A stretch of 64,000 bases of DNA from an uncultured Alphaproteobacteria bacterium (GTDB lineage Bacteria; Pseudomonadota; Alphaproteobacteria; RF32; CAG-239): assembly GCA_964017825.1 (NCBI GenBank), contig CAXHMA010000007.1, positions 758-64,757 on the forward strand, given 5' to 3'. Position 1 is the stretch's first letter. Every line of letters begins with the position of its first letter. A model generated the notes under the pieces. It was not told where the DNA came from. It saw nothing but the letters and a program-made list of their open reading frames with translations, and searched no databases. Shown here piece after piece: positions 13,863-30,845 of the stretch. The translations under genes and the position numbers were made by a program.

Positions 13863-16388
13863 ATGATAGATGTAAGCGATTATGAAAAAATAGATGATGA
13901 AAACAGAGGCGTTAACGAAAAACTCTGGATAAATGTTGAAGGGCGGCCGGCATTGTTCAAAAGAACTCAGATAAGAGATAACGGGACCCATACAAATGCA
14001 CATTACGGAGAAGCTTTTGTTTCTCAAATGTGCCGCCTGCTTGATTATAAATGTGCTGAAGTTGAAATTGCCCAAAGAAACGGAGAAATAGGTTGTATAA
14101 GCTATAGCTTCTTAAAAGAAGATGATGAATTGGTTGATTTTGTATCTTTGCTTCAAAATATCAGACCGTCATTTGATTCTAAAAAAATGTTGGTTCCGGA
14201 AACAAATGAAACTTATTCAATTCCTTTAATTTTAGAAGCCTTGGAAGAAGAAACAAGTTCAGAAGAAGAATTCAAAAACCTGAAAAGAGATTTTTTAAAA
14301 AGCTGCATAATAGATTCATTAATAGAACATTATGACAGAAATCCGTCTAATATCTCTGTCATACGAAACAACGGGCATATCACATTATCCCCTATGTTTG
14401 ATAACGGCACTTCCCTGAATCTTTCAATCCCCGCAGATGTAATTAAAGAACACGAAAATGATGAAAAATGGTCTAAACTGCTCAGAGAAAAAAACAGATC
14501 AAAAATTGGCGTTGAAGGAGAAAAATACAGCAGTTATGATAAACTTCTGGACTATATTTTAAGCAACTGTTACGAAGATGTTGCAGATTTTATAAGCGTC
14601 ATACAAGAGAAACTTACCAAAGAAAATATTGCCCGAATATTAGAACATGATGATTATGCTGACATGGATAATGTTTTCAAAGAGTTAATTATTAAAAAGA
14701 TTACCGATAATGTAAGAGATTTAGCAGAAAAAAGTAAGGAATATGAAAATAAATATACCGTTGAACAATATATGAAAACCCCGAATACATATGAATATTT
14801 AAAGGAAAAAGTTAAAACCCGGGATTTGCAAATCATTATTCCTGAAATAAACGCCTGTATCGATTGCCCTCAAAGAAACCCCTATCATATCTATTCTGTC
14901 AGTGATTATATGTTCCGCTGCATTGAACAAATAAACAATATAGAAGAAATTGCACGGGAAAACGGAATAGAATTAAAAATTTCCGATAAAAATAAAAGTT
15001 TAATACAATGGGCTGTCTTGTTTAACGAATTGGGAAAACCGCACGCAAGAGAAGAAATCGGTGATGCTGACGGAAATATAAGAGATACATTCAGAAATTA
15101 TAGTGAATACGGAGAAGAAATAGCTAAAAATTTAATGGAAAGATTAAATTTTTATGAAACAGATAAAAAAATTGTAACAGCATTAATATCTTCTCATCAG
15201 AGAAGATCTTTAGAGACGGATAACCCGATAAAAAAATTAATAAATGAAATCGGAGAAAGAAATATAGATTTATATTTCGGAATGAAATTAGCTGAAATAA
15301 AATCTAAAAATCCCGAAATAGAAAAGGAAGCACTGTTAAAATTAAAAATTTTAAAGGAAAGAATAGATAAAACAATAGCTGATGATAATAGAGAAATTAT
15401 TAAAGTATTGCCTTTTAACGGGGAACAAATGAAAAAATTAGGATTGCAGGGACGGCAAATCGGAGAAATTTTTAACTTATTGGCACGGTTTGTAAAATCT
15501 AATCCTGATATATATGCTTACTATAAATCAAGAGGACATCTGCAAAAATATAAGAAAAATATTGCCAGACTGTCTCAAGAATATGCAAAAGAGATAAAAA
15601 ACAGAGAAAAACGCAAACAAAAGGAGGCCAAAATGGAAAAAGTGGAACTAATTCCGACAAATGAAACCTCGGAGTATTATCGAGAACATGTTGCCGGTCG
15701 TCATGGTAAAGGTTCAACGGCTATCGGTTCAAAACTGTTAGATGATGTTTCCGATGATTATATACTTGAGGTGTTAAGCAAAACAGATAACGCATATCAA
15801 GAAGCTATCGACGAAAAAGGAAAACCCGGAAGAATGGTTTTTGCGGTTCAAGCGGACAGACCTATCGGAACAAATGCCTTACTGCCCAAAGAGAATTTAG
15901 ATAATAATTCTGTTTTTTCAACAACAAGAGATATTGGAACAAGAGGAGAAGCACAAGTATTGGTTGCGCTTATCTCAAAAGATGAAATGCCTAAGACAAA
16001 TATAGCCCATGTTATTATGGGACATTACGGTCCGACAGGAAAAGCCGGTATTTACACAATGATTTGCGGTGATGAAGGTATGCCTATGCCGAGAGCTGTT
16101 GATGAAAATACGCCTCCGGAAGCTGTCAGATTTAATGAAGAATGTCAAAAATACTGGGATAGTCATGTTTTTTTGATTACACCTGAGGAATTAAAGGCAA
16201 ATATTGCACAATTGCAGGCTAACGGGATATCTGCAACCAAACAAGAATTGTTTTTAAGAGCCTTTGAGGCAAAAGGAGAAAAATCTCCGATTGCAAAACC
16301 ATATCAAGCATATGTTTCTCCCAATGCTGTTAAATTGCAGGTAAAGTCTTCTAAAAATTTTGTTGCAGCAAAAGACGGCCGTGAGTAA
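13863..16388 (+). CDS. HipT/HipA-like Ser/Thr kinase fused to a degenerate CCA-adding-enzyme HD/tail module and an unknown C-terminal domain
   Basis: 841 aa.
- **Residues ~1-300 (kinase):** HipA-core motifs GVNEKLW..ALFK, HYDRNPSNIS and SPMFDNGTS.
- **Residues ~325-590:** colinear with the HD and tail region of class II tRNA nucleotidyltransferases (NPYHIYSVSDY, LFNELGKPHA, LISSHQRR, VLPFNGEQMKKLGLQGRQIGEIF), with HD replaced by NE.
- **Residues ~591-841:** unassigned. Confidence 0.7.
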   Translation: MIDVSDYEKIDDENRGVNEKLWINVEGRPALFKRTQIRDNGTHTNAHYGEAFVSQMCRLLDYKCAEVEIAQRNGEIGCISYSFLKEDDELVDFVSLLQNIRPSFDSKKMLVPETNETYSIPLILEALEEETSSEEEFKNLKRDFLKSCIIDSLIEHYDRNPSNISVIRNNGHITLSPMFDNGTSLNLSIPADVIKEHENDEKWSKLLREKNRSKIGVEGEKYSSYDKLLDYILSNCYEDVADFISVIQEKLTKENIARILEHDDYADMDNVFKELIIKKITDNVRDLAEKSKEYENKYTVEQYMKTPNTYEYLKEKVKTRDLQIIIPEINACIDCPQRNPYHIYSVSDYMFRCIEQINNIEEIARENGIELKISDKNKSLIQWAVLFNELGKPHAREEIGDADGNIRDTFRNYSEYGEEIAKNLMERLNFYETDKKIVTALISSHQRRSLETDNPIKKLINEIGERNIDLYFGMKLAEIKSKNPEIEKEALLKLKILKERIDKTIADDNREIIKVLPFNGEQMKKLGLQGRQIGEIFNLLARFVKSNPDIYAYYKSRGHLQKYKKNIARLSQEYAKEIKNREKRKQKEAKMEKVELIPTNETSEYYREHVAGRHGKGSTAIGSKLLDDVSDDYILEVLSKTDNAYQEAIDEKGKPGRMVFAVQADRPIGTNALLPKENLDNNSVFSTTRDIGTRGEAQVLVALISKDEMPKTNIAHVIMGHYGPTGKAGIYTMICGDEGMPMPRAVDENTPPEAVRFNEECQKYWDSHVFLITPEELKANIAQLQANGISATKQELFLRAFEAKGEKSPIAKPYQAYVSPNAVKLQVKSSKNFVAAKDGRE

Positions 16389-16446
16389 GACGCAAAAGTA
16401 CTAAAAATGTGAAGCAATTCGCAAGTTCAGATAAGACTTCATGGGC

Positions 16447-16653
16447 TCAGCCCGAATACGCATGAAAGAATTCTTTTTTCTTGTGTTCTTTATTTGTATG
16501 CCGTTCAACACCGCGATAAACACTGTGCATAATCTTTTCTGCTTGCTTATAATTCCCTGTTTCATAAGCGGCATAACATTTAAACGGACTAGGCTCCTCT
16601 GTTTCGCGGTCTAAATGTTTTATCGTTGGGATATATTTTTTGTTATATCAATT
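16447..16653 (-). pseudogene. remnant of a GIY-YIG / T5orf172-like gene
   Basis: The reverse strand reads ...PFKCYAAYETGNYKQAEKIMHSVYRGVERHTNKE..KEFFHAYSG*. This resembles the C-terminal half of T5orf172-type domains. There is no start codon, and the upstream sequence is broken by stops. Confidence 0.3.
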
Positions 16654-17047
16654 TAAAACGTCTTCCCGAAACATGGGATTGATTAAAATATATATAATTA
16701 CACGTTCTTTAGCTATTTAACGAGCCTTTCTTTTTATACCTTTTTTCCAATTATGCTTTGTTTAAACTATTATAAATTTCATCTACAAAAATACCCATTC
16801 CTCGTTAATCTTTGCTTAATTTCAAAAAATGAACTTCAATTTTTCTTTGTTTACGCACATCATCTAAAACAAGCGTATCTTTGTATGATCTTTGCAATCG
16901 GTCAATAACATTTTCTTAGTAGTTTTATAAAGAGTTTTAGTGATTAGCGGCCTTTCGCAACAATCGTCTATTATCTTCTAATTATTTCTTGCAAAAAAAC
17001 ACTATCAGAGATAGTATTCAACTAAATTGAGCAGAAAGAACATTAAA

Positions 17048-19087
17048 ATGAGCCGATATTTTTACGCAGATACAATTGAAAATTTTGTAAAAAGTAATCA
17101 TAACTATATCTTAGGAACGCTAGTAAAAAATTCGCCATTTGATATTACGAATCTACAAAGAAACGCATGGGAAGAAGAAATTAATTTGCTGAGTTCTATT
17201 CTGCAAAATGAAAAGGGACAAATTATTTTTGAATATAACATTCCCCGGTTGGGTAAGCGAATAGATGTCGTTTTACTGATAAGCGGAATTGTTTATGCGT
17301 TAGAATTTAAGGTTAATTCTACAGAATATTTGCGTCAAGATATAGAACAGGTATGGGATTATGCTTTAGACCTGAAAAACTTTCATGAGGCTAGCCATAA
17401 TCTGACGATTGTTCCGATTTTAATTGCTACAAATGCCCAAAACAGTTCACAGGTTCAACAATTTAGTAGCCATAATGATCTTGTTTTTGAGCCTATTTTA
17501 TGTAATTCTAGCGAACTTAACAATGTACTTCAGAAAATAAAAACCCACCACGCTGTAAATATTGATTTAAGTGTTTGGAAAAACAGCCGTTATAAACCAA
17601 CACCGACAATTATTCAGGCAGCAAGTTCACTTTATCTAAATCACTCCGTACATGATATTACTCGCACGGAGGCTTCTGGCAAAAGTTTACAGCAGACAAC
17701 AGATTTTATTTCTCAAATTATACAGTATTCTAGGAATAATCATGAGAAATCTATTTGTTTTGTAACCGGCGTACCGGGTGCTGGAAAGACATTAGTAGGT
17801 TTAAATGTTGCTGTCCAACAATTCAATCAAGGTGATCTAGCGGTATATTTATCTGGTAATCAGCCATTGGTTGATGTTTTAACCGAAGCGTTAGCCCGGG
17901 ATAAAAAAAGACAGGAAAATGAGAAAAATCCAGAAAAGCATTATACACTCGCAGAGGCAAGACGGAACGTAAAGTCATTTATTCAAATTGTGCACCATTA
18001 CCGCAATATTTCTCTGAGCAAAATTAAAACACCAATTCGCGATGGATTATTAGAAATCGATCCAGCAAAAATTAAAAAGCACCAGGAAGATGGCTATTCC
18101 GAAGTTGAGCACGTCGCTATTTTTGATGAAGCTCAACGCGCATGGACACGACAACAGCTGGCTAATTGGTTGAGACGTAAGCAAGGTATCAAAGATTTTC
18201 CAATGTCTGAACCAGAATTTTTGATTTGGTCATTGGATTTGCGTGAGGATTGGGCCGTTATTATTTGCTTAGTTGGCGGAGGCCAGGAAATCAATACTGG
18301 TGAGGCTGGCATTTCTGAATGGCTTAGAGCTATTAATAATAACTTTTCTAATTGGAATGTCTTTATTTCTGATAAGCTTCAAGATAAAGAATATGCAACA
18401 GATGAAATTGATAAATTGCTAGAAAATAACTCTCATGTTTGGAAGAAATCTGATCTTCACCTTGCTGTATCTATGCGTTCATTCAGAGCAGAACAACTTT
18501 CTGAATTTGTACATGCACTTTTAGATTCCAACGTAGATGAAGCCCAAAAAATATGTGAATCCCTTAAAAATCGATATCCTATAGTTCTAACCCGATCATT
18601 AGATAAAGCAAAAGCTTGGCTTAAACAACAAAAGCGCGGTTCCGAAAGATATGGTATGTTAGCATCATCCCAAGCCCAACGTTTAAGACCATTATCTATC
18701 GATGTGCGTTGCAAACCAGATACGGTGCACTGGTTTTTAGATGATATTGATGACATCAGATCTTCCATGTTTTTGGAAGATGCCGCATCAGAATTTGATG
18801 TACAAGGTTTGGAATTAGACTGGACATGTATTGTTTGGGATGGTGACTTGCGACGTGAAAATAATACGTGGGGCAATTATTCATTCATAGGTAATAAATG
18901 GCAAAATATTCGTACTGAAGAAAGAAAATCTTATCAAATCAATGCTTACAGAGTTTTGTTAACGCGTGCCAGACAAGGAATGGTTATTTGTGTTCCAGAA
19001 GGAAATCCTGCGGACGGCACTCGAAATCCTGTATATTACGACGAAACGTTTGATTATCTGAAAAGCATCGGATTAGAAGTAATATAA
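17048..19087 (+). CDS. DUF2075-type (Schlafen-related) SF1 ATPase/helicase with an N-terminal PD-(D/E)xK-like module
   Basis: ORF 17027..19087, with ATG 17048 preferred as the start. The N-terminus has a GKRIDVVLL...YALEFKV nuclease-like motif. It also has Walker A GVPGAGKT, Walker B IFDEAQRAW and a C-terminal YRVLLTRARQGMVICV. Confidence 0.7.
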   Translation: MSRYFYADTIENFVKSNHNYILGTLVKNSPFDITNLQRNAWEEEINLLSSILQNEKGQIIFEYNIPRLGKRIDVVLLISGIVYALEFKVNSTEYLRQDIEQVWDYALDLKNFHEASHNLTIVPILIATNAQNSSQVQQFSSHNDLVFEPILCNSSELNNVLQKIKTHHAVNIDLSVWKNSRYKPTPTIIQAASSLYLNHSVHDITRTEASGKSLQQTTDFISQIIQYSRNNHEKSICFVTGVPGAGKTLVGLNVAVQQFNQGDLAVYLSGNQPLVDVLTEALARDKKRQENEKNPEKHYTLAEARRNVKSFIQIVHHYRNISLSKIKTPIRDGLLEIDPAKIKKHQEDGYSEVEHVAIFDEAQRAWTRQQLANWLRRKQGIKDFPMSEPEFLIWSLDLREDWAVIICLVGGGQEINTGEAGISEWLRAINNNFSNWNVFISDKLQDKEYATDEIDKLLENNSHVWKKSDLHLAVSMRSFRAEQLSEFVHALLDSNVDEAQKICESLKNRYPIVLTRSLDKAKAWLKQQKRGSERYGMLASSQAQRLRPLSIDVRCKPDTVHWFLDDIDDIRSSMFLEDAASEFDVQGLELDWTCIVWDGDLRRENNTWGNYSFIGNKWQNIRTEERKSYQINAYRVLLTRARQGMVICVPEGNPADGTRNPVYYDETFDYLKSIGLEVI

Positions 19088-19646
19088 CATCTTTTCTTAG
19101 ATAAATGAAAAATAATAAAATAATCTTACCAGTATCAGTCAATAATACGATAAATTATACGTTCATGGAAGCATACATTAAAGCTATTCAAAAACAGGTT
19201 ATCCAAAATGTAGTTAAATGGAAAGATAAAAAAATAGAAAAAACAAAAGAAGTAGTTGCTTTGAAATAAATTATTTAAACAAAAAGAGTGCATTAAATAT
19301 GTCGCCTTTCTAGTATGAAGTATCATAACATTTAACCAATTGAAAAATAAGGATTGTTAAAAAAAAAGTCCGAAGATGATTCATACTTAAGCCTATAATA
19401 ATATAAATTTTCGGACCAAGATAAGCTGCTGATTTATAAAGAAAATATCCATTTCTGACGATTTTTGAACTGTGGTTGACCAAGGTTTACGACCTTAGGA
19501 AAAAATATGAGCAGAAATTAGTGAAAATGTACCTTATTATTGACGGCATGAATGACAATTTGCGGCAGATGATGATAGAAAGAATTTGTTGATATTATTC
19601 ATATTTTATGGTAGGTACTAATGTATAACCAATAATAGAGGATGCT

Positions 19647-21170
19647 ATGGCAATTGTTTCTTCACAACAAAACTATGATGATATTTTTGCAGATGATAGG
19701 TTAAATATAAAATCATTTGTGGTCGATTTTGCTCATTTGATAGAGCAAGATACATATATAGAAGGTGGTATTTCAAAGGTTTATTCGATAGCTGCCGAAT
19801 TTGGTATTGGAAAAACATTTTTCTGCGAAAAATTAAAATATGTCTTAGAGAAAGATAATGTTCAAACTATAAAAATGAATATTTGGGAAATGGACTTTTA
19901 TGAAAATCCATTAATGCCGATATTAGCAAAATTAAATGAAATTTATAAAAAAGACGGTGAAAATTTGCCTGCTAAGATTATTAATTCAACTTTAAATTTT
20001 ACAAAAAAGTCTTTAGCAGTATTATGTGAAACAGCCATTAAATCTGCTTCTAATAAAGTATTGGATGTTGATATCGCGGAGGTATGTAAAAATAATTTTG
20101 TGCCGGAAAATATTTATGACGATTTCAAAAATCATCAAGAGGCATTACAAGAACTTAAACAGTCGTTAATTAAGTGGGCAAGAGAAGATGAAAAACCGAT
20201 TGTTGTGATTATTGATGAATTGGACAGATGTCGGCCTGATTATGCGGTAAAAACGTTAGAAGTGTTGAAGCATTTCTTTGATGTATCAGGATTTGTGTTC
20301 GTTTTGGCATTAGATGAGAAGCAATTAGAGAGTTCTGTTAAATGCTTATTTGGTACAAATAATTTTGAAGGGTATAAAAGAAAATTTATTAATAATACAT
20401 TTTTGCTGCCAGTTCCTGATAGAAAAGCTTTTACCGAATTTTTATATGATAAATCAGGGATGGATACTTGGATTAAAATATTACAGGAGAAAAAACTTGA
20501 GTTAGTATTCCCTATTGACATATATAATGTATACTGTTGTGCTTATTCGTATAGCGACTATGGTAATTTTGAAAATGAAAGTAAGGCCAAAAAATTTAAT
20601 CAAACTCAGACATCTTCCGAAATTATTAAATGTTATTTTGCTGCGTACAGTGACTATTTTGGTTTTACTTTAAGAGAAATGGAACAGGTTTTTGAGCGTT
20701 TAATTATATTTATAAAGCAAATTTCTTCTAGCCAAGAAATATTTTCACCTGATTTAGCTGTTTTTTTAGTATGTTTGCATGAATTTGACATTAATACTTA
20801 TAATAAAATACGTTTTGGATTTACCAATTTTGAAACAGTAATATACGACAAAGATAATATGAGTTTATTAACTTTAATCCCAACTTTTTATAAAGGAAGT
20901 CATCTCTTAAATAATACATTCAATCGGACGTTTGCTCCTGAAATAATTCTTATCAATGGATATTCTGGTTATTGTGAAGAAAATCCTTCAACATCGTCTC
21001 CACTTCTGAGAGAAATTGGAGATAATGTTGACAGATTTTTTATTAAAGATGTATCAAAATTATGTCAAGAAGCAATATACCTTCGCAATATTGACATTCA
21101 AAAATTAGATATGACAAGAATTAAAGAGGTATATTTTGCCCATATGGATTTTATCTCTCATTTTGAATAA
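19647..21170 (+). CDS. KAP-family P-loop NTPase
   Basis: 507 aa with Walker A EFGIGKTFF and Walker B plus the KAP signature VVIIDELDRCRPDYAVKTLEVLKHFF. Confidence 0.8.
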   Translation: MAIVSSQQNYDDIFADDRLNIKSFVVDFAHLIEQDTYIEGGISKVYSIAAEFGIGKTFFCEKLKYVLEKDNVQTIKMNIWEMDFYENPLMPILAKLNEIYKKDGENLPAKIINSTLNFTKKSLAVLCETAIKSASNKVLDVDIAEVCKNNFVPENIYDDFKNHQEALQELKQSLIKWAREDEKPIVVIIDELDRCRPDYAVKTLEVLKHFFDVSGFVFVLALDEKQLESSVKCLFGTNNFEGYKRKFINNTFLLPVPDRKAFTEFLYDKSGMDTWIKILQEKKLELVFPIDIYNVYCCAYSYSDYGNFENESKAKKFNQTQTSSEIIKCYFAAYSDYFGFTLREMEQVFERLIIFIKQISSSQEIFSPDLAVFLVCLHEFDINTYNKIRFGFTNFETVIYDKDNMSLLTLIPTFYKGSHLLNNTFNRTFAPEIILINGYSGYCEENPSTSSPLLREIGDNVDRFFIKDVSKLCQEAIYLRNIDIQKLDMTRIKEVYFAHMDFISHFE

Positions 21171-21181
21171 ACTATATCTTT

Positions 21182-22042
21182 TTATAATTCATTGAACCAT
21201 TTTTCGTTTATTTCGACTTGTTCAATAATTTTAACACCCAGGTTGAATTCTTTTAATTTATTGGCTAGATCATGCCCATCAATTAGGTCGATAATTAAAG
21301 CACCATCCCTCCGAGCTTCATCTTTGGCATCTTTGGAAAATACCCCTGTTGTAATAATTAAACCTTTATCTGCCCGTCCCATTATAGCGCCACGAAAATC
21401 TCTAATCACAGATGAAGGAACTGTTCCTTCATATCTTTTACATTGAAAATAAATATTGAAGGAAACGAAGCCAGCAATTTTGAATACACCTTTGCCATCT
21501 ATTCCTCCATCACCTGATTTCTTCGTTACTTCAACATTGTCAAAACCAGCTTCTCTTAATAACCTCTGCGCAAGTCTCTCAAATGCAAAGGGATTCATTT
21601 TCTTCAGAGTCGCAATAAGCCTATCTTCCCATTTTATTTCTTCTGTTGTTTCTTCAATAAAATTACAAGCACTATCTTTTTCTTGTAAAGGGATATTTGC
21701 CGGTTCTTCTGCATTTGTGGAATGTTCGCAGCTTTTTACAAATTTTTTTACCTCATTAATGTTAATCTTATCTGTTTTTAAACCTTTGGGAGTTAATGCC
21801 CAAACGCCACGAGTGGAATTAGATAAGATACCATATACTTTAAGGTATGATTTAGCCCAAGCAACGCGATAATCTAAAACAGAACGGTTTCCCCCATTAT
21901 AAAGTTCAGAGGCTTCTTCATCAGTAAGTTTAAGAATTTTACTTATTTCAGAAAGTATTTCATCATTTTTTGCAGATCCGCCCAAGTTTTTTATTGCTTC
22001 AATGACGGGATTGAAGAGCTTATCATATGTAGGTATTGGCAT
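21182..22042 (-). CDS. mrr: Mrr-family type IV restriction endonuclease
   Basis: 286 aa with an Mrr_N winged-helix start (PTYDKLFNPVIEAIKNLGG) and an Mrr_cat core (FERLAQRLL, GDGGIDG, FQCKRY). Confidence 0.75.
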   Translation of the reverse strand: MPIPTYDKLFNPVIEAIKNLGGSAKNDEILSEISKILKLTDEEASELYNGGNRSVLDYRVAWAKSYLKVYGILSNSTRGVWALTPKGLKTDKININEVKKFVKSCEHSTNAEEPANIPLQEKDSACNFIEETTEEIKWEDRLIATLKKMNPFAFERLAQRLLREAGFDNVEVTKKSGDGGIDGKGVFKIAGFVSFNIYFQCKRYEGTVPSSVIRDFRGAIMGRADKGLIITTGVFSKDAKDEARRDGALIIDLIDGHDLANKLKEFNLGVKIIEQVEINEKWFNEL

Positions 22043-22177
22043 TTAATAACTCCAATAAATCAAGAATGATTTCAGTATATTTTATTAAATTTTGAATTTC
22101 AATAAAAAAGAAATAAATGCAAAGATAAATACTCAATATTTTTATTATATAACCAACATCAGAAGGAAATAATAAAA

Positions 22178-22471
22178 ATGATAAAGAACTTTTATATTTG
22201 TCTGGACAATACGGCATTAAATTATGCACTAAAGCATTTCAGTAATCCGTTTACGCGAATAATGCGTTGCTATACAGGCTTGGAAGTTGAAATGATTGTT
22301 AGAGCTATGAACAGTAACAAGAGCAAGAGATTTTATACGCTTAGGAGTTCACAAAGAAACATTTTAAGAGCTGAAATCAAAAATCTTGAAATATTAAGTA
22401 CAGTTTTTGATAGAGCTGTTACTGATAGCCCCCTCAAGTCCTTACAAAATGACATTAATTGTTTTAATTAA
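22178..22471 (+). CDS. small hypothetical protein upstream of the RT promoter
   Basis: 97-aa ORF, AT-rich, with no recognisable family. It ends 24 nt before the -35 box at 22495. Confidence 0.4.
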   Translation: MIKNFYICLDNTALNYALKHFSNPFTRIMRCYTGLEVEMIVRAMNSNKSKRFYTLRSSQRNILRAEIKNLEILSTVFDRAVTDSPLKSLQNDINCFN

Positions 22472-22494
22472 TTCACAAGGTTATCAATTATAAC

Positions 22495-22523
22495 TTGAAC
22501 ATCTTAATTCTCTTGTATATAAT
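22495..22523 (+). promoter_or_regulatory. near-consensus sigma70 promoter upstream of the RT leader
   Basis: TTGAAC (22495-22500), a 17-nt spacer, then TATAAT (22518-22523). The predicted TSS is near 22530. Confidence 0.6.
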
Positions 22524-22529
22524 CATGTC

Positions 22530-22716
22530 AATGCTTTAGTCTCAATAATTACTAGGACATTTACGATGGCAATGCAGGGAAACCGAGCAGGCTCAGCAGT
22601 AAATAACTTAGATGAGAATACAATAACTGGGAAACTAGGAATTGGCGTTAGTATATATAATAAATATACAATACGTGAGACAAGTGTCCCCCGTCCCTAG
22701 GTAGGTTGAGATATAA
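22530..22716 (+). ncRNA. candidate RT-associated noncoding RNA / long leader
   Basis: About 190 nt lie between the promoter and the RT start. Local hairpins include gtatat-ataataa-atatac at 22651-22670. Possible long-range pairings are ctaggac (22552-58) with gtccctag (22693-700), and gtctca (22539-44) with tgagac (22676-81). The boundaries are not demonstrated. Confidence 0.35.
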
Positions 22717-24018
22717 TTGCTGAGTGCTAACATGGAAAATAGAAAAAAGAACAAAAAAGCTAAATTCACAACATTTAAACACTTTTATAAGCGGCTATAC
22801 GAAGAGGAAAATATTCGTAAGGCGTGGAATGCCGTATATGCTAATTGTACAAGTTCCTCATCACTGAGAACAAGAAATGACGCAAAAGATTTTAAATCTC
22901 AAGAAGTCGTTAATCTCAAGCGATTAAAAGATAGTTTAGCAAGCAAAAAATTTAACTTTTCTGTCAAAGCAATTCCACAAGAACGATTAGGTAAAGATCC
23001 TCGCCCTCTGGTTAATATAACTATTGAGGGACGCATTGTACAAAGATGTATTCTAAATGTTCTTCAATCTCACAGTGGAATAAAAAAATATATGCATAAT
23101 AACCCTTTCAGTTTTGGTGGTATTAAGCATAGAGGAGTTAAGGATGCCGTTGAAGCGGTAATAAGAACATCTTCTGAAAAAGGTTACACCCATTTTCTTA
23201 CATCTGATATAGGCGACTTCTTCACAAGAATAAAATCTGATATAGTTATTGGTAAAATAGAAGAGTTTTGCAAGGCAGATCAAGATTTTATTAATATTCT
23301 TCAAAAAGCAATTCATCTTGAAATAGAAAATATGAAGGAAATTGAGAAGAAATACCCTAAAATTCTTTATAAATACAATTATACAGATGAAGGTGTGCCT
23401 CAAGGTAGTTGCTTATCACCATTATTTGGTAATATGTACCTTTATGAATTTGATAAAATAATGAACAGTAGTAGTGATGTTTCTTGCTTTAGGTATATTG
23501 ATGATATTATTATAATTGGTAATAGCTTTAAGAATGTTGAAAACTCTTTTCATAAAAAAGCATTACCGATTTTAGAAAAGCTTGGTTTAACGGCCTATAT
23601 ACCAGGCAAAAGCAATAAAGCAGCGCACGGAGAACTAGATAGCAGTTCTGGTTTCAATTATTTAGGCGTCAACATAACAAAAAATCAAATAAAACCTAGT
23701 AAAGATGCTTTTGAAAAAATAATAAAAGAAATCAAAGATTTAATTCTTGAGGCATTGAATTTTGACGCAATAAAACCTGTAAGCTTATACAAGACATTGG
23801 ATTTAATTGATAGAAAGCTCAAAGGATGGGGGAATCACTATTCTTTTTGTAATGCTAAAGTTGAGATGAATGTTCTAGATATAACTATGGATAAGTTGTT
23901 AAGTGAATTTATAGAAAAATATAACAAAAAACTTGCAAAACTTAAACCTAGCCATATTAGGGAAAAGATAGGTATACAAAGAGTTACCAACTGTAAGCAT
24001 GACCCAATTATTAAATGA
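22717..24018 (+). CDS. stand-alone reverse transcriptase (group-II-intron-like / UG-class), no endonuclease domain
   Basis: 433 aa from TTG 22717 (alternative ATG at 22732). RT motifs:
- RPLVNITIEGRIVQRCILNVL;
- SFGGIKHRGVKDAVEAV;
- TSDIGDFFTRI;
- GVPQGSCLSPLFGNMYLYEFD;
- the catalytic box FRYIDDIIIIG;
- FNYLGVNI;
- a maturase-like thumb, LKGWGNHYSF. Confidence 0.85.
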   Translation: MLSANMENRKKNKKAKFTTFKHFYKRLYEEENIRKAWNAVYANCTSSSSLRTRNDAKDFKSQEVVNLKRLKDSLASKKFNFSVKAIPQERLGKDPRPLVNITIEGRIVQRCILNVLQSHSGIKKYMHNNPFSFGGIKHRGVKDAVEAVIRTSSEKGYTHFLTSDIGDFFTRIKSDIVIGKIEEFCKADQDFINILQKAIHLEIENMKEIEKKYPKILYKYNYTDEGVPQGSCLSPLFGNMYLYEFDKIMNSSSDVSCFRYIDDIIIIGNSFKNVENSFHKKALPILEKLGLTAYIPGKSNKAAHGELDSSSGFNYLGVNITKNQIKPSKDAFEKIIKEIKDLILEALNFDAIKPVSLYKTLDLIDRKLKGWGNHYSFCNAKVEMNVLDITMDKLLSEFIEKYNKKLAKLKPSHIREKIGIQRVTNCKHDPIIK

Positions 24019-24440
24019 CTAAATCATCTCAACAATTTTCTTCTGGGCGTCGGTGTTGTATTCAATATAGCGTTGGGTGGTGGTGAAGATGGAATGTCCG
24101 GCCAGCATGCGGATATCGTTTAAGGTTCTACCAGCAAGGCTGATATTTTTAGCTGCGGCAGTAATGAATGTTTTGCGGCCGCTATGCTTCAAAACCGATT
24201 TCTTTATATAAATTATAAAAGAAATTAACGATTGCCTGCGGACAGGGCTTATTGTTGCGTTCTGTCGTAATAATCCGGTTCATCAAATTAAAATGCTCAT
24301 TCTTCTGTTGCATGCTCAGCAATTCCACCCAATCTTTGTGCAAAGGAATAATCCGTCCAAATTGTTTGCCCTTGGATGCTTTATTAATAAGGTTAATTTC
24401 TTGGATTAGGTTTCCTTCCGATCGCAAACGGATACGATAA
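24019..24440 (-). pseudogene. tyrosine recombinase/integrase remnant (N-terminally truncated, frameshifted)
   Basis: The reverse strand of 24019-24180 reads GRKTFITAAAKNISLAGRTLNDIRMLAGHSIFTTTQRYIEYN...*, which is the C-terminal catalytic box. The upstream part, in the frame of ORF 24182..24691, is out of frame and ends in a TAG at 24182. Confidence 0.65.
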
Positions 24441-24469
24441 GCGATAATGTAATACGCAGTTTTGAAAAA

Positions 24470-25511
24470 ATGCGCAAAGAGGGAAAATGGGCACACCATG
24501 CACCAGTCGGCTATAAAAATGTAAGGGATGCCAATGGTAACAGCGATATTGTGTTGGATGAGGACAACCATTTCATCATTACGCGGTTGTTTAAGGAATT
24601 TTCGATTGGCACCTATAATCTTGAGCAAATAACGCGAAAAGCCGCAGATTTCGGGCTTAAGATGAAGACCAGTAAGAAGCTTCATAAACAAACTATCCGC
24701 GGAATATTAAGCAACCGTTTTTATGTCGGGGAAATGTATAGCGGCGGGCATTATTATCCGCATTGTTATCCGCGGCTGACGGACAGTTATACGTTTGAAC
24801 GGTGTCAGGAAATTTTGGAAGGTAAGGCAAATCATAAGGTACAAAAGCATGAATATGTATTAAAGGATTGGTTCGTTGTAAAAAATGCAGTGGTGTTGTT
24901 TCGACAGATATCAATGTACATCCGGCGAAAAAGAAGGGCGGAGAAAAAATCGTTTATAAATACCTTTTTTGTCCGCAATGCGGCGGCTATCGGACGAAAG
25001 AGAAAAATGAGGTTAAAAAGTGAAAGAGGCGCTAAAAACGCTTAAAAACATGCCTAAAAGCGTTGTTGAAAAATTGATTGCCTGTTTGGATGAAGAAATT
25101 TACGAAGACCATAAAATAGAAATAGAAGCCAAGAAGGCCTTGGACAGGCAGATTGCCGGTTTTGCAGAAAAGGAAAGCCGGTTGATAGACTTGTTTACGG
25201 AAGGCAGTATTACACAGAATTTATATACAAAAAAACTAACCGAGTACAGACAGGATAAGAAAAAACTGGAAGAGCGATTAACCGACTATAGTCATCTGAC
25301 TAAGCAAGGTCTAATAACGTTAAAATATTTGGCTAGCTTGCTTTTGATGTCAGATCGGATATGGAATTTTCTGAACAACGACAAAAAACAGCAGGTTTTA
25401 AAATTACTTTGTTCGGAAATTTTATTAGATGGTAAAAATGTAGATATTTCAATAAGAAAGCCTATTCTAGCACTGGCTAAAATAGGCTCTTGTCAAGTCT
25501 GGCTGGAGTGA
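24470..25511 (+). pseudogene. large serine recombinase remnant (catalytic domain missing, at least 2 frameshifts)
   Basis: Three consecutive frames carry its parts:
- the recombinase domain (HAPVGYKNV...RFYVGEM);
- a zinc ribbon (LVRCKKCSGVV...FCPQCGGY);
- the coiled-coil C-terminus (ORF 25020..25511).
No resolvase N-terminal domain is present. Confidence 0.7.
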
Positions 25512-25720
25512 ACTCGCAATTCGCGGACTAAATTATTTGATTTTTTTAATGATAGTCTTGCGTCTTTTTATTCAATACCCTAAATATAGTAATAACTTTT
25601 AGTAACTATGGATTTAATAAGATGAATAAAAATATGAGTAAAATAGGCAAGAATGCAACATTAGCTGTGCTAAGCTAAATACCTATTGTTTCTGCATTTA
25701 GTAAGTTTTGCGAGGATTTT

Positions 25721-26299
25721 GTGCAAGATAATTGGCAAGAACGTATAAATATATGGAAAAAAGATGTTGTAAAAAGGTTGTCGCAATTAGATACTGAAAC
25801 AGAACAGAAAATAAGGGAGACATCAAATTTTTCAAGTATATTAGCTTCTGCACAACGTGGGGCTTTGGAAGATATTGAAGAAGATAAAATTGCTCTTTAT
25901 GTTAATGCCGTTGTAAATTCTATTAAAAATGAAAATATAGATGATACAAAAAAACATATATTTTTGAATATGTTGCGAGATTTTACAAAATTACACATTG
26001 AGATTTTAAAATTTTATAATGAAATTGAAGAAAAAATAAAAATATTACATTCTGGAATACAATTTAATTATGTAAATGGAAATTCTGAGCATTGGTACGA
26101 TATTGCGTATAAATGCAACCCAATGCTATTTCAAAACAAAACATTATGTATGGTGGCTTATAATGAATTAGTTTTTCGCAAACCGCTTAAGAATAATGGA
26201 CATATTATGACAGATGGTAGCACTTTAAATAATAACTATCCGACAAAACAAACAACAAATTTAGGTGATGAATTTCTTAGTTTTATTGCTGAACAATAG
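25721..26299 (+). CDS. hypothetical protein (possibly a nonsense-interrupted longer gene starting at 25622)
   Basis: 192-aa ORF from a GTG start. An in-frame ATG at 25622 is separated from it only by a TAA at 25676-25678. Confidence 0.45.
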   Translation: MQDNWQERINIWKKDVVKRLSQLDTETEQKIRETSNFSSILASAQRGALEDIEEDKIALYVNAVVNSIKNENIDDTKKHIFLNMLRDFTKLHIEILKFYNEIEEKIKILHSGIQFNYVNGNSEHWYDIAYKCNPMLFQNKTLCMVAYNELVFRKPLKNNGHIMTDGSTLNNNYPTKQTTNLGDEFLSFIAEQ

Positions 26300-27788: not shown

Positions 27789-28610
27789 TTATATTGAAAG
27801 CTTGTTTAATCCGTAGTCGACAAGTTCACCGCCGTAATAGACGATATTGGAATTGCCGTATTTCAGTTTTTTAGTGTAAAATGTGATGGGTTTTCCCTGA
27901 TATATCCATTCATAGCGGTCAAAGAATTTCTCGTCTTTAACATTAAATTGCGCGTTCTCGCTCATAAAACGGATAATCTTGTCCGTATCCTGCTTAGTCA
28001 GCGCGTTTTCCATAATCCAACGGGAATACGGGTTATCAGCATTTCCGTTTCTTGTGTTGAGGTTAAGCGTTTTCAGACTGACCGTTTGAATATTCGGATA
28101 AATGTCAAGATATTTTTTAATCTCCTCGAGATAGTCGTTAAAACTTTTGTTTTTCATCAAAACATAATTTAAGCGGATGTTGGCTTGCTTAAATAAATCG
28201 CTGTTAATATAGTCTTTATCATATCCGAGAGTCATCATATCTTTTTTAGAATCAAAATCCACCCGGGTAATTTCAATAATAAAATCATTTTTGATTAAAT
28301 CGAATTTATCTTTTTCATAAAAAATATTGCCTGAAGATTGAAAACGCTTTTCATCAAAAATATTGACTTTATCAGTTGTCTCAACCACGCTTTTTATCGT
28401 CTGATAACTATGCAGCGAAGGCTCTCCGTTCCCACAAAAAATAAAATATCTGAAATTGATGCCTTTATCTTTCAAATAACTGAGTTTTTCCTCCAACTGT
28501 GCGAGTTTATCGTCAACAATGGGCCATTGCGTTATTTTAGCGGTGCAGTACGGGCAGTGTTTGTTGCACTTAAAAGATGATAAAATTAACTCAAATTCTT
28601 TATATTTCAT
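27789..28610 (-). CDS. radical SAM enzyme, unknown substrate
   Basis: It has the CNKHCPYC (CxxxCxxC) cluster near the N-terminus and the GNGEPSL motif. The start ATG 28610 (MKYKEF) overlaps the end of the upstream gene. Confidence 0.75.
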   Translation of the reverse strand: MKYKEFELILSSFKCNKHCPYCTAKITQWPIVDDKLAQLEEKLSYLKDKGINFRYFIFCGNGEPSLHSYQTIKSVVETTDKVNIFDEKRFQSSGNIFYEKDKFDLIKNDFIIEITRVDFDSKKDMMTLGYDKDYINSDLFKQANIRLNYVLMKNKSFNDYLEEIKKYLDIYPNIQTVSLKTLNLNTRNGNADNPYSRWIMENALTKQDTDKIIRFMSENAQFNVKDEKFFDRYEWIYQGKPITFYTKKLKYGNSNIVYYGGELVDYGLNKLSI

Positions 28611-29124
28611 GGCAAACAACCTCCTTTAAAACAGATTGGATTAAAGCAGACAAATCATTATTGTCGCAATAGGAATAAATTTTGGTTTGGGGACTTTGCC
28701 GCAAAGCATCGGCAATTGCAAACCAGTATTCCGATTTTATTTGGTATGCGGACTCTTCTTCTTTGTATAAGATGACGATTTCTTTTTTAAACAAAAGCGC
28801 CCACTCAAGCTCCACAATGGAACCCACCGAAAAGCTCTCATTAAACACCGCGAAAAAAACGTCGCAATTTTTAACCGCGGCTAATTCGGCGCGAAGAACA
28901 GTTTTACAGTCATTTGATGTAAACTTGCCGTTAGAGGCCTGCTCGCAATAGAACGGCCCCGAATATATGAACCGATTGTCAACAATTAAGTCCTTTGTAT
29001 AAAATGTCAGAAGTCGGGAACTGCCTAAAATATGCGCTCTGTAATCATTTTCCAACGATTGAACCAATGATAAGCATGGCTCTTTAATCCGGTTAAACTT
29101 ACCTGAAAAATATATTTTTTTCAT
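28600..29124 (-). CDS. nucleoside 2-deoxyribosyltransferase-like (NDT-fold) protein
   Basis: Internal ATG 29124 (MKKIYFSGKF) overlaps the pnuC stop as TAATG. The later acidic motif VGSIVELEWAL resembles the NDT catalytic Glu region. Confidence 0.55.
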   Translation of the reverse strand: MKKIYFSGKFNRIKEPCLSLVQSLENDYRAHILGSSRLLTFYTKDLIVDNRFIYSGPFYCEQASNGKFTSNDCKTVLRAELAAVKNCDVFFAVFNESFSVGSIVELEWALLFKKEIVILYKEEESAYQIKSEYWFAIADALRQSPQTKIYSYCDNNDLSALIQSVLKEVVCHEI

Positions 29125-29681
29125 TATTCCTGTCCTTTCATAATTCTTTTCCAATTGATGTAGGATAAAACGGCCATAACGGTCCAGATAACGTTTAGGC
29201 TGAAAAGATAATAGGCCGGATTTGCCAACGAAAAATATTGAAAAGCGTAAACAATGTCGTTGATAAACCATATAATCCATGTATCAATCCTTTTTTTGAT
29301 CATATAATAAGTCGCAGTTAAGGAAGACGTTGTGGTAAACGCGTCGGTAAACGGTTTTGGATCTGCGGTTTGCTTTAATATAAAACCGACAATTACGGTG
29401 CTTAAAAAGATAAAAGTAATGTAAAACAACCTTTCTTTATAAGAACATTGTGTGATTTTAAATTCTTTCTTTTGCTGCCAGAGAATAAGCCCGAATATGC
29501 CCATTACCAAATAAACCGAGTTGTTTATCACATCGCCAAACAGCCTGTTTTGTAAGGAAAAACAAATCAAAAAAATCATTTGCAAAATATAAAATATCCA
29601 GTTGGAACGCCTATTAAACATCACGAGGATACCTTGCAACAATCCTGAGATTGTTGCGCTGATTTCTAGAAAAAGCAACAT
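29124..29681 (-). CDS. pnuC: PnuC-family nucleoside/vitamin transporter
   Basis: 185 aa with about 6-7 TM segments and a PnuC-like start (ISATISGLLQGILVMFNRRSNWIFYILQ). The substrate cannot be inferred from sequence alone. Confidence 0.7.
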   Translation of the reverse strand: MLLFLEISATISGLLQGILVMFNRRSNWIFYILQMIFLICFSLQNRLFGDVINNSVYLVMGIFGLILWQQKKEFKITQCSYKERLFYITFIFLSTVIVGFILKQTADPKPFTDAFTTTSSLTATYYMIKKRIDTWIIWFINDIVYAFQYFSLANPAYYLFSLNVIWTVMAVLSYINWKRIMKGQE

Positions 29682-29687
29682 GTTAAC

Positions 29688-29906
29688 CTACCTTGATTTG
29701 TGTTCAAAATTTAGTTGTTGAAGTTGGGACGAAACCGCCACAATATCCCTGTTGTTGAATTTTAGGGGCTGATATTGGAATTGCGTTGTTTTGATGAGGT
29801 TATCTGAGATGATGTTGTCAATGTCGGCTCCTTTGCTGATAATCGGCATTCTGATACCATAAACCGCTGTTCCGACATAACGTGTGTTTTGACTAATTTC
29901 AGTCAT
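29688..29906 (-). CDS. small ORF, possibly a truncated CofE/gamma-glutamyl-ligase-like N-terminal fragment
   Basis: 72 aa from ATG 29906. The IRMPIISKGADIDNIISDNL...NRDIVAVSSQ pattern is weakly similar to the first ~60 aa of CofE-like ligases. Confidence 0.3.
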   Translation of the reverse strand: MTEISQNTRYVGTAVYGIRMPIISKGADIDNIISDNLIKTTQFQYQPLKFNNRDIVAVSSQLQQLNFEHKSR

Positions 29907-29991
29907 ATATTTTCTCCTTGACAGTAGGTTATTCTGATTTGTCTCGACTGTCCCTGCAAGACCCAAACCAGCAAAAGTTTATATAAACTTT

Positions 29992-30522
29992 TCAGTTAAT
30001 ATTGTCTTCATAAAAATATTTTTTCACTAAATCATAATTTTCCGGATGGACAAAGTTTTTCCATCTTTCATCTTCCAAAACAATCATATCGCGAACCATA
30101 TTTCCTGATAAGAAAGGAAAATTCTGTGTTGTCCGTGAACATATTTCAACATGAGGAACATCATGCGCAAAAAACAAATATTCCTTTTGGGTTCCGACAT
30201 ACATAACATCGGGAGTACAAATTTCAGATTGTTCTTTCCTGATTGTTTCCAAGACATTATAATTCCAAGGTATAGAAATATCATCTTTAACGCCGATAAT
30301 CCGCAAACGGTTGTATGCTTCATTGTGGCGCCAGACGTTCTGAACCATTTTTTTTCTGACAAAATAAGCTAAAGGATTTTTCTCCGTCCCGCTTTCTTGT
30401 GCGGAACCTATTAAAACCGTCCCATGCTCGCATTCAGCCATCATTTTTTCAATAAGCCGATTGTGACCGATATGAAAAGGCTGACAGCGTATAATGCAAA
30501 AACCATGTTTGTATTTAAACAT
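29992..30522 (-). CDS. nicotinamide/nicotinate mononucleotide adenylyltransferase (NadM / archaeal-type NMNAT-like)
   Basis: 176 aa from ATG 30522. It has the cytidylyltransferase-fold motif IRCQPFHIGH followed by LIGSAQESGTEKNP. Confidence 0.75.
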   Translation of the reverse strand: MFKYKHGFCIIRCQPFHIGHNRLIEKMMAECEHGTVLIGSAQESGTEKNPLAYFVRKKMVQNVWRHNEAYNRLRIIGVKDDISIPWNYNVLETIRKEQSEICTPDVMYVGTQKEYLFFAHDVPHVEICSRTTQNFPFLSGNMVRDMIVLEDERWKNFVHPENYDLVKKYFYEDNIN

Positions 30523-30627
30523 AAAAAAACCTTTCATCTGAAAGGCCGCATCAACAAGAAATAAAATCTTTATTACCGTTAACTGGCCAGGTTGCTTGTT
30601 CGTGCCCATAGCCCTCGAGCACCCGAA
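30523..30627 (-). promoter_or_regulatory. structured 5-prime leader with a terminator/SD-sequestering hairpin (candidate riboswitch or attenuator)
   Basis: On the minus strand:
- a 5-prime hairpin gttcg-gg-gtgctc...gggcac-gaac;
- a possible alternative pairing of aacaag with cttgtt;
- the hairpin cctttc-agat-gaaagg (30530-30545) followed by T7, directly abutting the ATG.
The gaaagg arm is the only SD-like sequence. Confidence 0.35.
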
Positions 30628-30634
30628 CAATTCT

Positions 30635-30770: not shown

Positions 30771-30845
30771 TGGCTGGGGCGGCTGGATTCGAACCAACGA
30801 ATGTCGGCACCAAAAGCCGATGCCTTACCACTTGGCGACGCCCCA
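30771..30845 (-). tRNA. tRNA-Gln (anticodon UUG), CCA encoded
   Basis: The reverse complement is TGGGGCGTCGCCAAGTGGTAAGGCATCGGCTTTTGGTGCCGACATTCGTTGGTTCGAATCCAGCCGCCCCAGCCA. It folds by hand into a cloverleaf with a 7-bp acceptor stem, anticodon loop TTTTGGT and T-loop TTCGAAT. Confidence 0.95.

Follow-up and report, generated by a model that had tools for sequence, protein, structure and literature searches.

Among described systems, the one closest to the locus analyzed here is that of PaG2L4, the G2L4 reverse transcriptase (RT) of Pseudomonas aeruginosa AZPAE12409 (PDB 9d5x/9d4s; Park et al. 2022 and 2025). Our locus, an RT gene with its promoter and leader, occupies positions 22495 to 24018 of a 64,000-nucleotide (nt) stretch of DNA from an uncultured alphaproteobacterium (GenBank contig CAXHMA010000007.1), and this whole stretch is called the window below. 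Experiments on PaG2L4 have revealed a homodimer with DNA-repair activity, in microhomology-mediated end joining (MMEJ) as well as in translesion synthesis. Repair of DNA breaks, demonstrated for the G2L4 RT of one Pseudomonas strain, is the sole experimentally shown function of any member of the family (10.1101/2022.03.14.484287), whose defining mark is the motif YIDD in place of YADD (PMC4244168). Park et al. also reported long direct repeats (LDRs), for Pseudomonas only, as two copies with a ~240-nt spacer in ~70% of the Pseudomonas loci; on the strand of the RT their RNA coverage was 20-fold higher, and they modulated the survival phenotype (10.1101/2022.03.14.484287). The 2025 structure paper on G2L4 does not mention them.

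The window locus resembles that of PaG2L4 in many respects. Its RT is free-standing and ~420 amino acids (aa) long, with YIDD, serines in the RT0 loop, a long RT3a, a thumb and no DNA-binding or endonuclease (D/En) domain; it lies near a tyrosine recombinase, in an island of low GC content that was acquired horizontally, and a ~140- to 150-nt repeat, predicted to be transcribed on the RT strand, stands ahead of it. It differs from PaG2L4 in having PQG rather than AQG and E-K at the positions of R190/R191, and in carrying one LDR and no spacer.

More distant parallels are found in RTs that work with an upstream RNA. DRT2 consists of an RT and a noncoding RNA (ncRNA), and rolling-circle reverse transcription makes its neo gene. 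G2L4 loci likewise have the RT as their only protein component besides an upstream ncRNA, repeats that might support a template jump, and an open frame that would become contiguous only after such a jump. However, their repeats measure 110 to 160 nt and not a few nt, the repeated unit of 336 to 438 nt is usually no multiple of 3, the open reading frame (ORF) is finite, and the window RT scores 48 bits on the Drt2 profile, whose cut-off is 390. The RT of group II introns binds DIVa and so autoregulates at its own start codon. The RT fold is related, and G2L4 loci too have a structured RNA that lies just 5' of the translation-initiation region of the RT and extends into it, but they lack an intron ribozyme, their element is duplicated, and its binding by the RT is putative. 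Finally, DRT10, the system of the UG17 RTs, is a tripartite module of ncRNA, SLATT and RT (PMC12632851; 10.64898/2026.04.29.721553). It has in common with G2L4 loci a structured upstream ncRNA of ~140 nt (basal stem and several hairpins), an association of some systems with a tyrosine recombinase, a setting in defense islands and a profile-level similarity of the RT; canonical G2L4 loci also have a membrane-protein ORF between ncRNA and RT. In contrast to DRT10, they lack SLATT, their RT belongs to another family and their RNA is duplicated, with a ~240-nt spacer; evidence of tandem-repeat cDNA comes from DRT10.

In this study, we find it very probable that the window RT is a G2L4 RT and, at the same time, that its leader is an LDR element. 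LDRs, noted once for Pseudomonas, are now a family-wide feature across phyla. The covariation-supported LDR RNA, the conserved promoter and spacer, the long-range pairing and a frame-specific absence of stops are described here, and none of them is found in the later structural or mechanistic papers on G2L4 that we consulted. The element offers a testable handle on what LDRs do and on whether G2L4 is a repair enzyme only.

Assignment of the window RT to the G2L4 family

The RT ORF begins at TTG 22717 or ATG 22732 and ends at 24018 on the forward strand. An earlier reading of this DNA, made from the letters and their translations and here called the sequence-only reading, had given the RT 433 aa. 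The ORF is indeed present, but the start kept in relatives is ATG 22732, which yields 428 aa (22732 to 24018). The same reading had described the RT as free-standing, with YIDD, a GWGNHY thumb and no fused domain, and in this it was right: Pfam matched RVT_1 (9e-24) and, weakly, GIIM over the thumb, and no further domain. YIDD (23494 to 23505), PQG (23398 to 23406) and GWGNHY in the thumb (23824 to 23841) were located in the sequence and with the invariant columns of the alignments. The protein is made of an N-terminal extension (NTE)/RT0, RT1 to RT7 and the thumb, without D/En domains, and aligns to G2L4 residues 4 to 382.

Among all solved structures, the best match was the P. aeruginosa G2L4 RT (9d5x/9d4s), with an E value of 7e-48 over RT residues 18 to 394, followed by group II RTs at 1e-9. 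A homologue search returned 82 proteins at E<1e-29 and then a gap, group II intron RTs appearing only at E values of at least 5e-14. Because PaG2L4 reached up to 282 bits against the homologues of the window RT and only 28 to 78 bits against group II RTs, we assign the RT to the G2L4 family; in this score comparison, PaG2L4 nests among those homologues. None of them departs from RY-DD, and at the remaining position the consensus of the family is I, as in the YIDD of the window RT. Furthermore, the RT0 loop is rich in serine (CTSSSSLRT, aligning with FLSSSDEIR of PaG2L4), S42 being nearly invariant, and in the alignment to PaG2L4, RT3a keeps the length of the G2L4-type 9-aa insertion, with an E at the D182 position and a conserved N185, but with E-K opposite R190/R191.

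Judged by these comparisons, the window RT adds a divergent new member to G2L4, a known family, and does not represent an uncharacterized lineage. The sequence-only reading had thought the latter possible, and its claim of an uncharacterized defense RT is hereby removed for the window; the G2L-type RT that it gave as the alternative is the correct family. It had also set against itself the combination of a place within G2L4 and no conserved upstream RNA. The RT does fall within G2L4, but the upstream RNA proved to be conserved, as described below. The clade of the window RT is divergent and AT-rich, and its nearest relatives come largely from human-gut metagenomes.

Other RT classes were considered and rejected. 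For a retron, the NCBIfam profile NF038233 stayed below its cut-off (46.5 bits, cut-off 235), and Rfam matched no msr/msd RNA between 21000 and 26000. For DRT2, the RT scored 47.7 bits with NCBIfam Drt2, far under the cut-off of 390, and Drt3a likewise remained far below its own.

LDRs throughout the G2L4 family

By self-comparison, we found two LDRs in 55 loci, almost all of those whose upstream DNA was long enough. They are spread over Alpha-, Gamma- and Deltaproteobacteria, Bdellovibrionota, Nitrospira, Acidobacteriota and others. The paired LDRs are 110 to 160 nt long and 92 to 100% identical to each other, mostly 97 to 100%. LDR2 ends ~40 nt ahead of the RT start, and LDR1 lies 336 to 438 nt upstream of LDR2. 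The canonical order is thus promoter, LDR1, a conserved structured spacer of ~220 to 260 nt, the near-identical LDR2, a tail of ~40 nt, and the RT. One Bdellovibrionales locus (L011, 3024 to 3905; L numbers denote the loci of relatives) has three identical LDRs and two identical spacers with a period of 376 nt and is, by this layout, a copy-number expansion of the LDR-spacer unit.

A covariance model built from 13 LDRs recovered 76 LDR copies, every one in the orientation of the RT and where an LDR was expected. In the resulting alignment, which is fitted to the model and therefore somewhat inflates pairing, 88.4% of the cells were paired, compared to ~43% when the partner was slid. Compensatory changes were seen in 28 of the 34 pairs of this model-fitted alignment, in which G-U pairs are frequent, and the covariation score was 0.33 versus 0.06 to 0.08. 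Covariation of the leader across homologous loci, which the sequence-only reading had suggested as a check, is thereby present, although it was computed in another clade than that of the window. The mean fold z across loci was -2.3 for the sense strand and -0.7 for the antisense strand. The LDR is, as these data show, a structured RNA of the sense strand. In it, both repeat ends form a closing stem around three hairpins, an architecture common to the window and to L003, L008 and L087, and the stem covaries among relatives of the clade (AGUCUCA/UGAGAC, UUUCAAU/AUUGAA, CUUCAA/UUGAAG, UUCCAA/UUGGAG). By score, the covariance models R1 and R2 failed to reach the clade of the window and the delta, gamma, Nitrospira and Bdellovibrio clades.

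The repeats also leave a mark on assemblies. Twelve of 81 contigs end 55 to 200 nt upstream of the RT and none (0/81) equally close downstream, a clustering due to the near-identical direct repeats. The broken contigs include L004, L007, L014 to L016, L042, L047, L056 and L082 to L085. Three Logan contigs begin at a point exactly 31 nt within the end of the repeat, which is what k=31 assemblies should give. Assemblers systematically break or collapse G2L4 loci, a practical artifact to be reckoned with in short-read assemblies.

A single LDR in the window

In the window, one LDR of 151 nt (22538 to 22688, forward strand) precedes the RT. It is predicted to form a structured RNA with a closing stem (22539 to 22543 with 22677 to 22681, GUCUC/GAGAC) and three hairpins. 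A 43-nt tail, CCCCGTCCCTAGGTAGGTTGAGATATAATTGCTGAGTGCTAAC (22689 to 22731, forward strand), separates it from the RT start; this tail is conserved in relatives, with ~93% nucleotide identity in L083 and L084, whose RTs are just 77 to 82% identical. From promoter to RT, the whole leader measures ~200 nt. The sequence-only reading had proposed a leader RNA of ~190 nt ahead of the RT, in good agreement with this conserved, covariation-supported sense-strand element found family-wide. The fold z of the 151-nt LDR, relative to shuffles, was -4.8 on the sense strand versus -1.2 on the antisense strand; for the entire 205-nt leader it was -1.4.

The closest relative, L001, has an RT 99% identical to that of the window and carries LDR1, a 255-nt spacer and LDR2, the two copies being 98.7% identical and 406 nt apart. 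Window positions 22180 to 22688 correspond to L001 7094 to 7603, through LDR1, and window positions 22538 to 24429 to L001 7859 to 9773, from LDR2 onward. In this alignment, the window differs from L001 by the loss of exactly one LDR together with the spacer, and we therefore read the window leader as one LDR plus the 43-nt tail. No second LDR or spacer was found anywhere in the 64-kb window, and a search for direct and inverted repeats between 21000 and 25000 gave no LDR pair. The single LDR has an LDR1-type base at its 5' end and an LDR2-type base at its 3' end, and it would have arisen either by recombination between the repeats or by collapse in the assembler. For the window, collapse during assembly has to be taken seriously, since all four chromosome-level assemblies in our set carry two LDRs. 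The layout promoter, single LDR, tail, RT also occurs at eight other loci (L090, L031, L041, L049, L059, L039, L040 and L079), whose RTs are intact and which all come from short-read assemblies.

Rfam gave no match for the leader, nor any intron RNA, between 21000 and 26000 at E<=1 or in seven relatives; the statement of the sequence-only reading that the RT lies outside a group II intron is in line with this. An invertible promoter flanked by a 15-nt inverted repeat (22137 to 22151 and 22654 to 22668) was also considered, and it was dropped once the contig breaks had been explained.

Promoter and long-range pairing

A sigma-70-type promoter, TTGAAC (22495 to 22500), a 17-nt spacer and TATAAT (22518 to 22523), matches the consensus at 10 of 12 positions on the forward strand and places the predicted transcription start at ~22530, a few nt ahead of the LDR boundary. 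The sequence-only reading had called it near-perfect. The site is there and its position is conserved, but the quality of the match is by itself not above chance, since 10 such matches were observed in this AT-rich DNA versus 11.9 expected. The argument comes from position: among 49 loci, a sigma-70-like site (at least 9/12) lies just 5' of LDR1 in 33%, compared to 0% before LDR2 and 1.3% at random positions, and single-LDR loci elsewhere show the same placement. Judged by this conserved position, the predicted promoter of the window is real. Across phyla, the end of the -10 box is 6 to 18 nt from the LDR start, so that the 5' edge of the repeat is essentially the predicted 5' end of the RNA.

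The spacer of two-LDR loci has conserved features, namely, a CCGUA...ACGG stem and a CAAAAACGUGCCA...UGGCACG hairpin. Additionally, in every clade its first ~15 nt are complementary to the tail that follows LDR2 (X'/X pairing), with sequences that differ between clades. A contiguous Watson-Crick run of at least 8 nt was found in 41% of the cognate spacer/tail pairs versus 4% of the noncognate ones, in a test that is moderately discriminating; a duplex-energy test did not discriminate, since GC-rich sequences pair with anything. The spacer partner of this pairing is absent from the window. Within window positions 22538 to 22731, two partners are available to the LDR 5' end AGUCUCAA, UGAGAC at the LDR 3' end and UUGAGAU in the tail. 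Further complements of the tail, UAUCUCA and CUCAGCAA, are found in the L001 spacer. These predicted pairings among LDR 5' end, LDR 3' end, tail and spacer around the RT start are mutually exclusive.

Favored explanation and alternatives

Our best explanation as a whole, to which we give a probability of roughly 60%, is that of a G2L4 RT with an LDR leader, a cis-acting role of the RNA and, by homology, a function as repair polymerase. A leader of roughly 200 nt, LDR plus 43-nt tail, would be transcribed from the promoter at 22495 to 22523. The RNA of LDR and spacer would act in cis as a leader, which the RT possibly binds, much as group II RTs do with DIVa at their own start codons; by pairing in alternative ways around the ribosome-binding region, it would set how strongly the RT and a small upstream ORF are expressed. 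The RT itself would act as an Mn-stimulated DNA-repair polymerase in MMEJ and translesion synthesis, as is presumed from its homology with the P. aeruginosa enzyme.

Several observations weigh against this explanation. The regulatory or RT-binding role of the LDR RNA is something that we infer, and we hold it tentatively, at somewhat less than an even chance. The repair function comes from a single Pseudomonas enzyme, which matches the window RT at E 7e-48. R190/R191 lock the active-site plug of the G2L4 RT (PMC11761039), and because E-K replaces the R-R of PaG2L4, the window RT may not share its auto-inhibited apoenzyme. The PQG in RT4 is found in the window RT and its whole clade, whereas the wider family has the consensus AQG. 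As for the RNA, covariance models from Acidobacteria and Alphaproteobacteria do not detect the window LDR, whose probable homology is drawn from L001 and from the shared architecture. The window is also without the spacer and second repeat of most loci, whose role is either missing here or was lost by the assembler. Finally, a purely noncoding leader does not explain the frame-specific absence of stops through the LDR.

One alternative is a two-gene operon, in which a small protein of 59 to 97 aa would be encoded from the spacer through LDR2 and be translationally coupled to the RT; LDR1 would then be a partial gene duplicate, and the window leader mainly a truncated coding remnant and not an ncRNA. 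Ahead of LDR2, the frame of the LDR stays open in 93% of the loci, with a positionally conserved ATG that usually lies 57 to 90 nt before LDR2, inside a conserved ATGCAAAAACGUGCC motif; the start ATGCAAAAACGTGCC is conserved there in many lineages. The genomic ORF from this ATG encodes MQKRAxxARR followed by a hydrophobic stretch, and signal-peptide-like N termini occur in alpha-, gamma- and deltaproteobacterial and other loci. Its stop is 20 to 50 nt ahead of the RT start or overlaps it (L068, -4; L027, +1), a Shine-Dalgarno sequence with ATG or TTG is found in the AT-rich clade, and two groups show conservation at the second codon position in the N-terminal part. However, the LDR part has strong RNA-pair covariation and a flat codon-position substitution pattern, the hint of periodicity being confined to the N-terminal part of the ORF. 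Moreover, the peptide is not conserved across clades past the first ~25 residues, no Pfam family matches it, and the frame that stays open after LDR1 is left unexplained. We consider this operon unlikely as an account of the locus; it is compatible with our best explanation and does not exclude it. Fusion of the upstream frame to the RT by frameshifting was rejected, as the frames do not overlap in L001. In the window, a 44-codon open frame lies inside the LDR (22566 to 22700, forward strand), a remnant of the frame that is stop-free in relatives; only this remnant is kept because the spacer, which holds the conserved start of the small ORF, is missing.

Just as unlikely, in our view, is that the window copy is a decaying relic in which recombination between the repeats deleted the spacer and the small-ORF start within an already eroding island, leaving an RT no longer properly expressed or functional. 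The exact loss of one LDR and spacer relative to L001, the LDR1-type and LDR2-type bases at the two ends of the single LDR, as expected of a crossover product, the frameshifted and truncated tyrosine recombinase adjoining the RT and the serine-recombinase fragments at 24470 to 25511 would all fit. On the other hand, the RT ORF is intact with all its catalytic motifs, the eight other single-LDR loci have intact RTs too (all in short-read assemblies), and the two LDRs in 4/4 chromosome-level assemblies point to assembly collapse.

A DRT-like module is rather less probable than either. Here, the LDR/spacer RNA would be the template of the RT, and cDNA reaching the 5' end would jump to the identical LDR2, much as in retroviral R-repeat strand transfer or DRT2 rolling-circle reverse transcription. 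This would yield concatemers or circles of [spacer-LDR] that make a split ORF contiguous, and the small membrane protein encoded by it would be an anti-phage effector. The coincidence of the repeat 5' boundary with the predicted transcription start across phyla speaks for it, as does the variable LDR copy number (1, 2 or 3), the setting in a defense island and the PADLOC match to RT_UG17 (6e-34). So does the frame: LDR1 and the next 110 nt contain one stop-free sense frame in 45 of 47 loci (96%), compared to a mean of 3.5 stops in the other frames; for the antisense strand, the share of loci with a stop-free frame is just 30%. Several loci have no start codon in the first 170 to 240 nt of the frame through LDR1. 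A start before LDR2, where the frame is open in 93% of the loci with its conserved ATG, would join the frame after LDR1 only in a concatemer, circle or template-jump product; the composite ORF has a median length of 128 aa. In the concatenated unit, the open frame extends over at least one period, a length that 0 of 200 shuffles reached in 7 of 10 lineages. In L012, the sole difference between LDR1 and LDR2 (~3583 versus ~3927) removes an in-frame TGA in the LDR1 copy only, and for this reason its frame runs into the spacer after LDR1 and stops after LDR2.

Against such a template jump stand the published function of the family, DNA repair, and the lack of codon periodicity in the LDR substitutions. 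Identical repeats and changes in copy number are equally explained by gene conversion and unequal recombination, and the window has no spacer and hence no ORF start. A neo-type endless ORF does not hold in general and was rejected as such: the values of the period modulo 3 are evenly distributed, two thirds of the loci have a period that 3 does not divide, and the frame is endless in only 6 of 50. A broader form of the same idea, slightly more doubtful still, holds that G2L4 loci are tripartite retro-modules, instead of or besides repair. The LDR would serve as a terminal "R" element, and the jump would join an ORF split into a start with a signal-peptide-like segment before LDR2 and a body with its stop after LDR1, giving a small membrane effector. 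If true, this would be a long-repeat analogue of DRT2/DRT10 immunity.

It is very improbable that the RT belongs to DRT10/UG17 or another UG/Abi defense group. RT_UG17 is the best specific PADLOC profile and covers most of the RT (6e-34, 115.6 bits; the generic RT profile gives 125 bits), and the order of ncRNA, small membrane ORF and RT, together with the tyrosine recombinase association, resembles DRT10 (PMC12632851). However, the match to the solved G2L4 RT is far stronger, the motif is YIDD and not YVDD, no SLATT gene was found nearby or in any relative examined, and NCBIfam Drt2 and Drt3a remain far under their cut-offs. That the RT is the maturase of a group II intron, whether bona fide or degenerate, is the least credible of all, given that the weak GIIM thumb match and the 133 bits on TIGR04416 (group II RT/maturase, cut-off 300) are set against the lack of any intron domain by Rfam in the window (21000 to 26000) or seven relatives and an upstream structured RNA that contains an internal duplication and is unlike domains I to VI. 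An arrangement like that of diversity-generating retroelements, with template and variable repeats (TR/VR), was also rejected, as both repeats are upstream, on the noncoding side and near-identical, and there is no target gene.

Genomic neighborhood

The RT stop (24016 to 24018) abuts an ORF at 24019 to 24192 on the reverse strand. Positions 24022 to 24421 (reverse strand; tblastn) are a tyrosine recombinase pseudogene that is convergent with the RT, frameshifted and N-terminally truncated. Compared to the intact 193-aa protein of L083 (Pfam Phage_integrase), residues 118 to 193 and 59 to 135 match in different frames and residues 1 to 58 are missing, which makes the gene a pseudogene and bears out the dead integrase that the sequence-only reading had placed at the RT stop. 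This small recombinase stands beside the RT only in the subclade of the window. A conserved protein partner was looked for and rejected, the recombinase being confined to this subclade and other neighbors varying among relatives. Serine-recombinase fragments (Pfam Recombinase) at 24470 to 25511 are 95% identical to L001 17723 to 18765. In L001, the distance of this stretch from the RT is ~8 kb greater; by this comparison, the island has therefore undergone rearrangement or deletion relative to its nearest relative.

Upstream of the RT lie Mrr (21182 to 22042), a KAP NTPase (19647 to 21170) and an SLFN-type helicase (17027 to 19087); the sequence-only reading had named Mrr, the NTPase and a helicase in an AT-rich island, and it did so correctly. 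PADLOC calls them type IV restriction/PDC-S02, PDC-S20 and PDC-S41 (900 bits), respectively, and further upstream PDC-M03A (13863 to 16388) with a HipA-like N terminus. According to PADLOC, 13863 to 22042 thus contains four adjacent defense or candidate-defense genes. No SLATT domain and no other fixed effector was found among the neighbors in the window or at the loci of the relatives examined. KAP NTPases are near G2L4 genes in three distinct loci, Mrr is near a G2L4 gene also in Ralstonia, and the G2L4 locus of one relative has SIR2 and a second RT (688 aa) nearby; the stretches concerned are L166/L167 9503 to 12448, L001 4972 to 6570, L170 7648 to 8544, and L085 2121 to 2834 and 6093 to 6368. 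These neighbors suggest that G2L4 may be enriched in defense islands; for the window RT, this setting is an association only. Between Mrr and the promoter, a 97-aa ORF (22178 to 22471) without Pfam or PADLOC match is 99% conserved in L001.

The low-GC stretch extends over ~12 to 32 kb. At its right edge, where GC content shifts at ~31 to 32 kb, lies a tRNA-Gln (30771 to 30845, reverse strand), which is the likely integration site of the island. Inside it, four genes on the reverse strand (27789 to 30630) encode a radical-SAM protein with a weak pVip-like match, an unassigned 226-aa ORF, a PnuC-like nicotinamide mononucleotide transporter and a cytidylyltransferase-like protein, and this cluster may be a nucleotide-modifying module.

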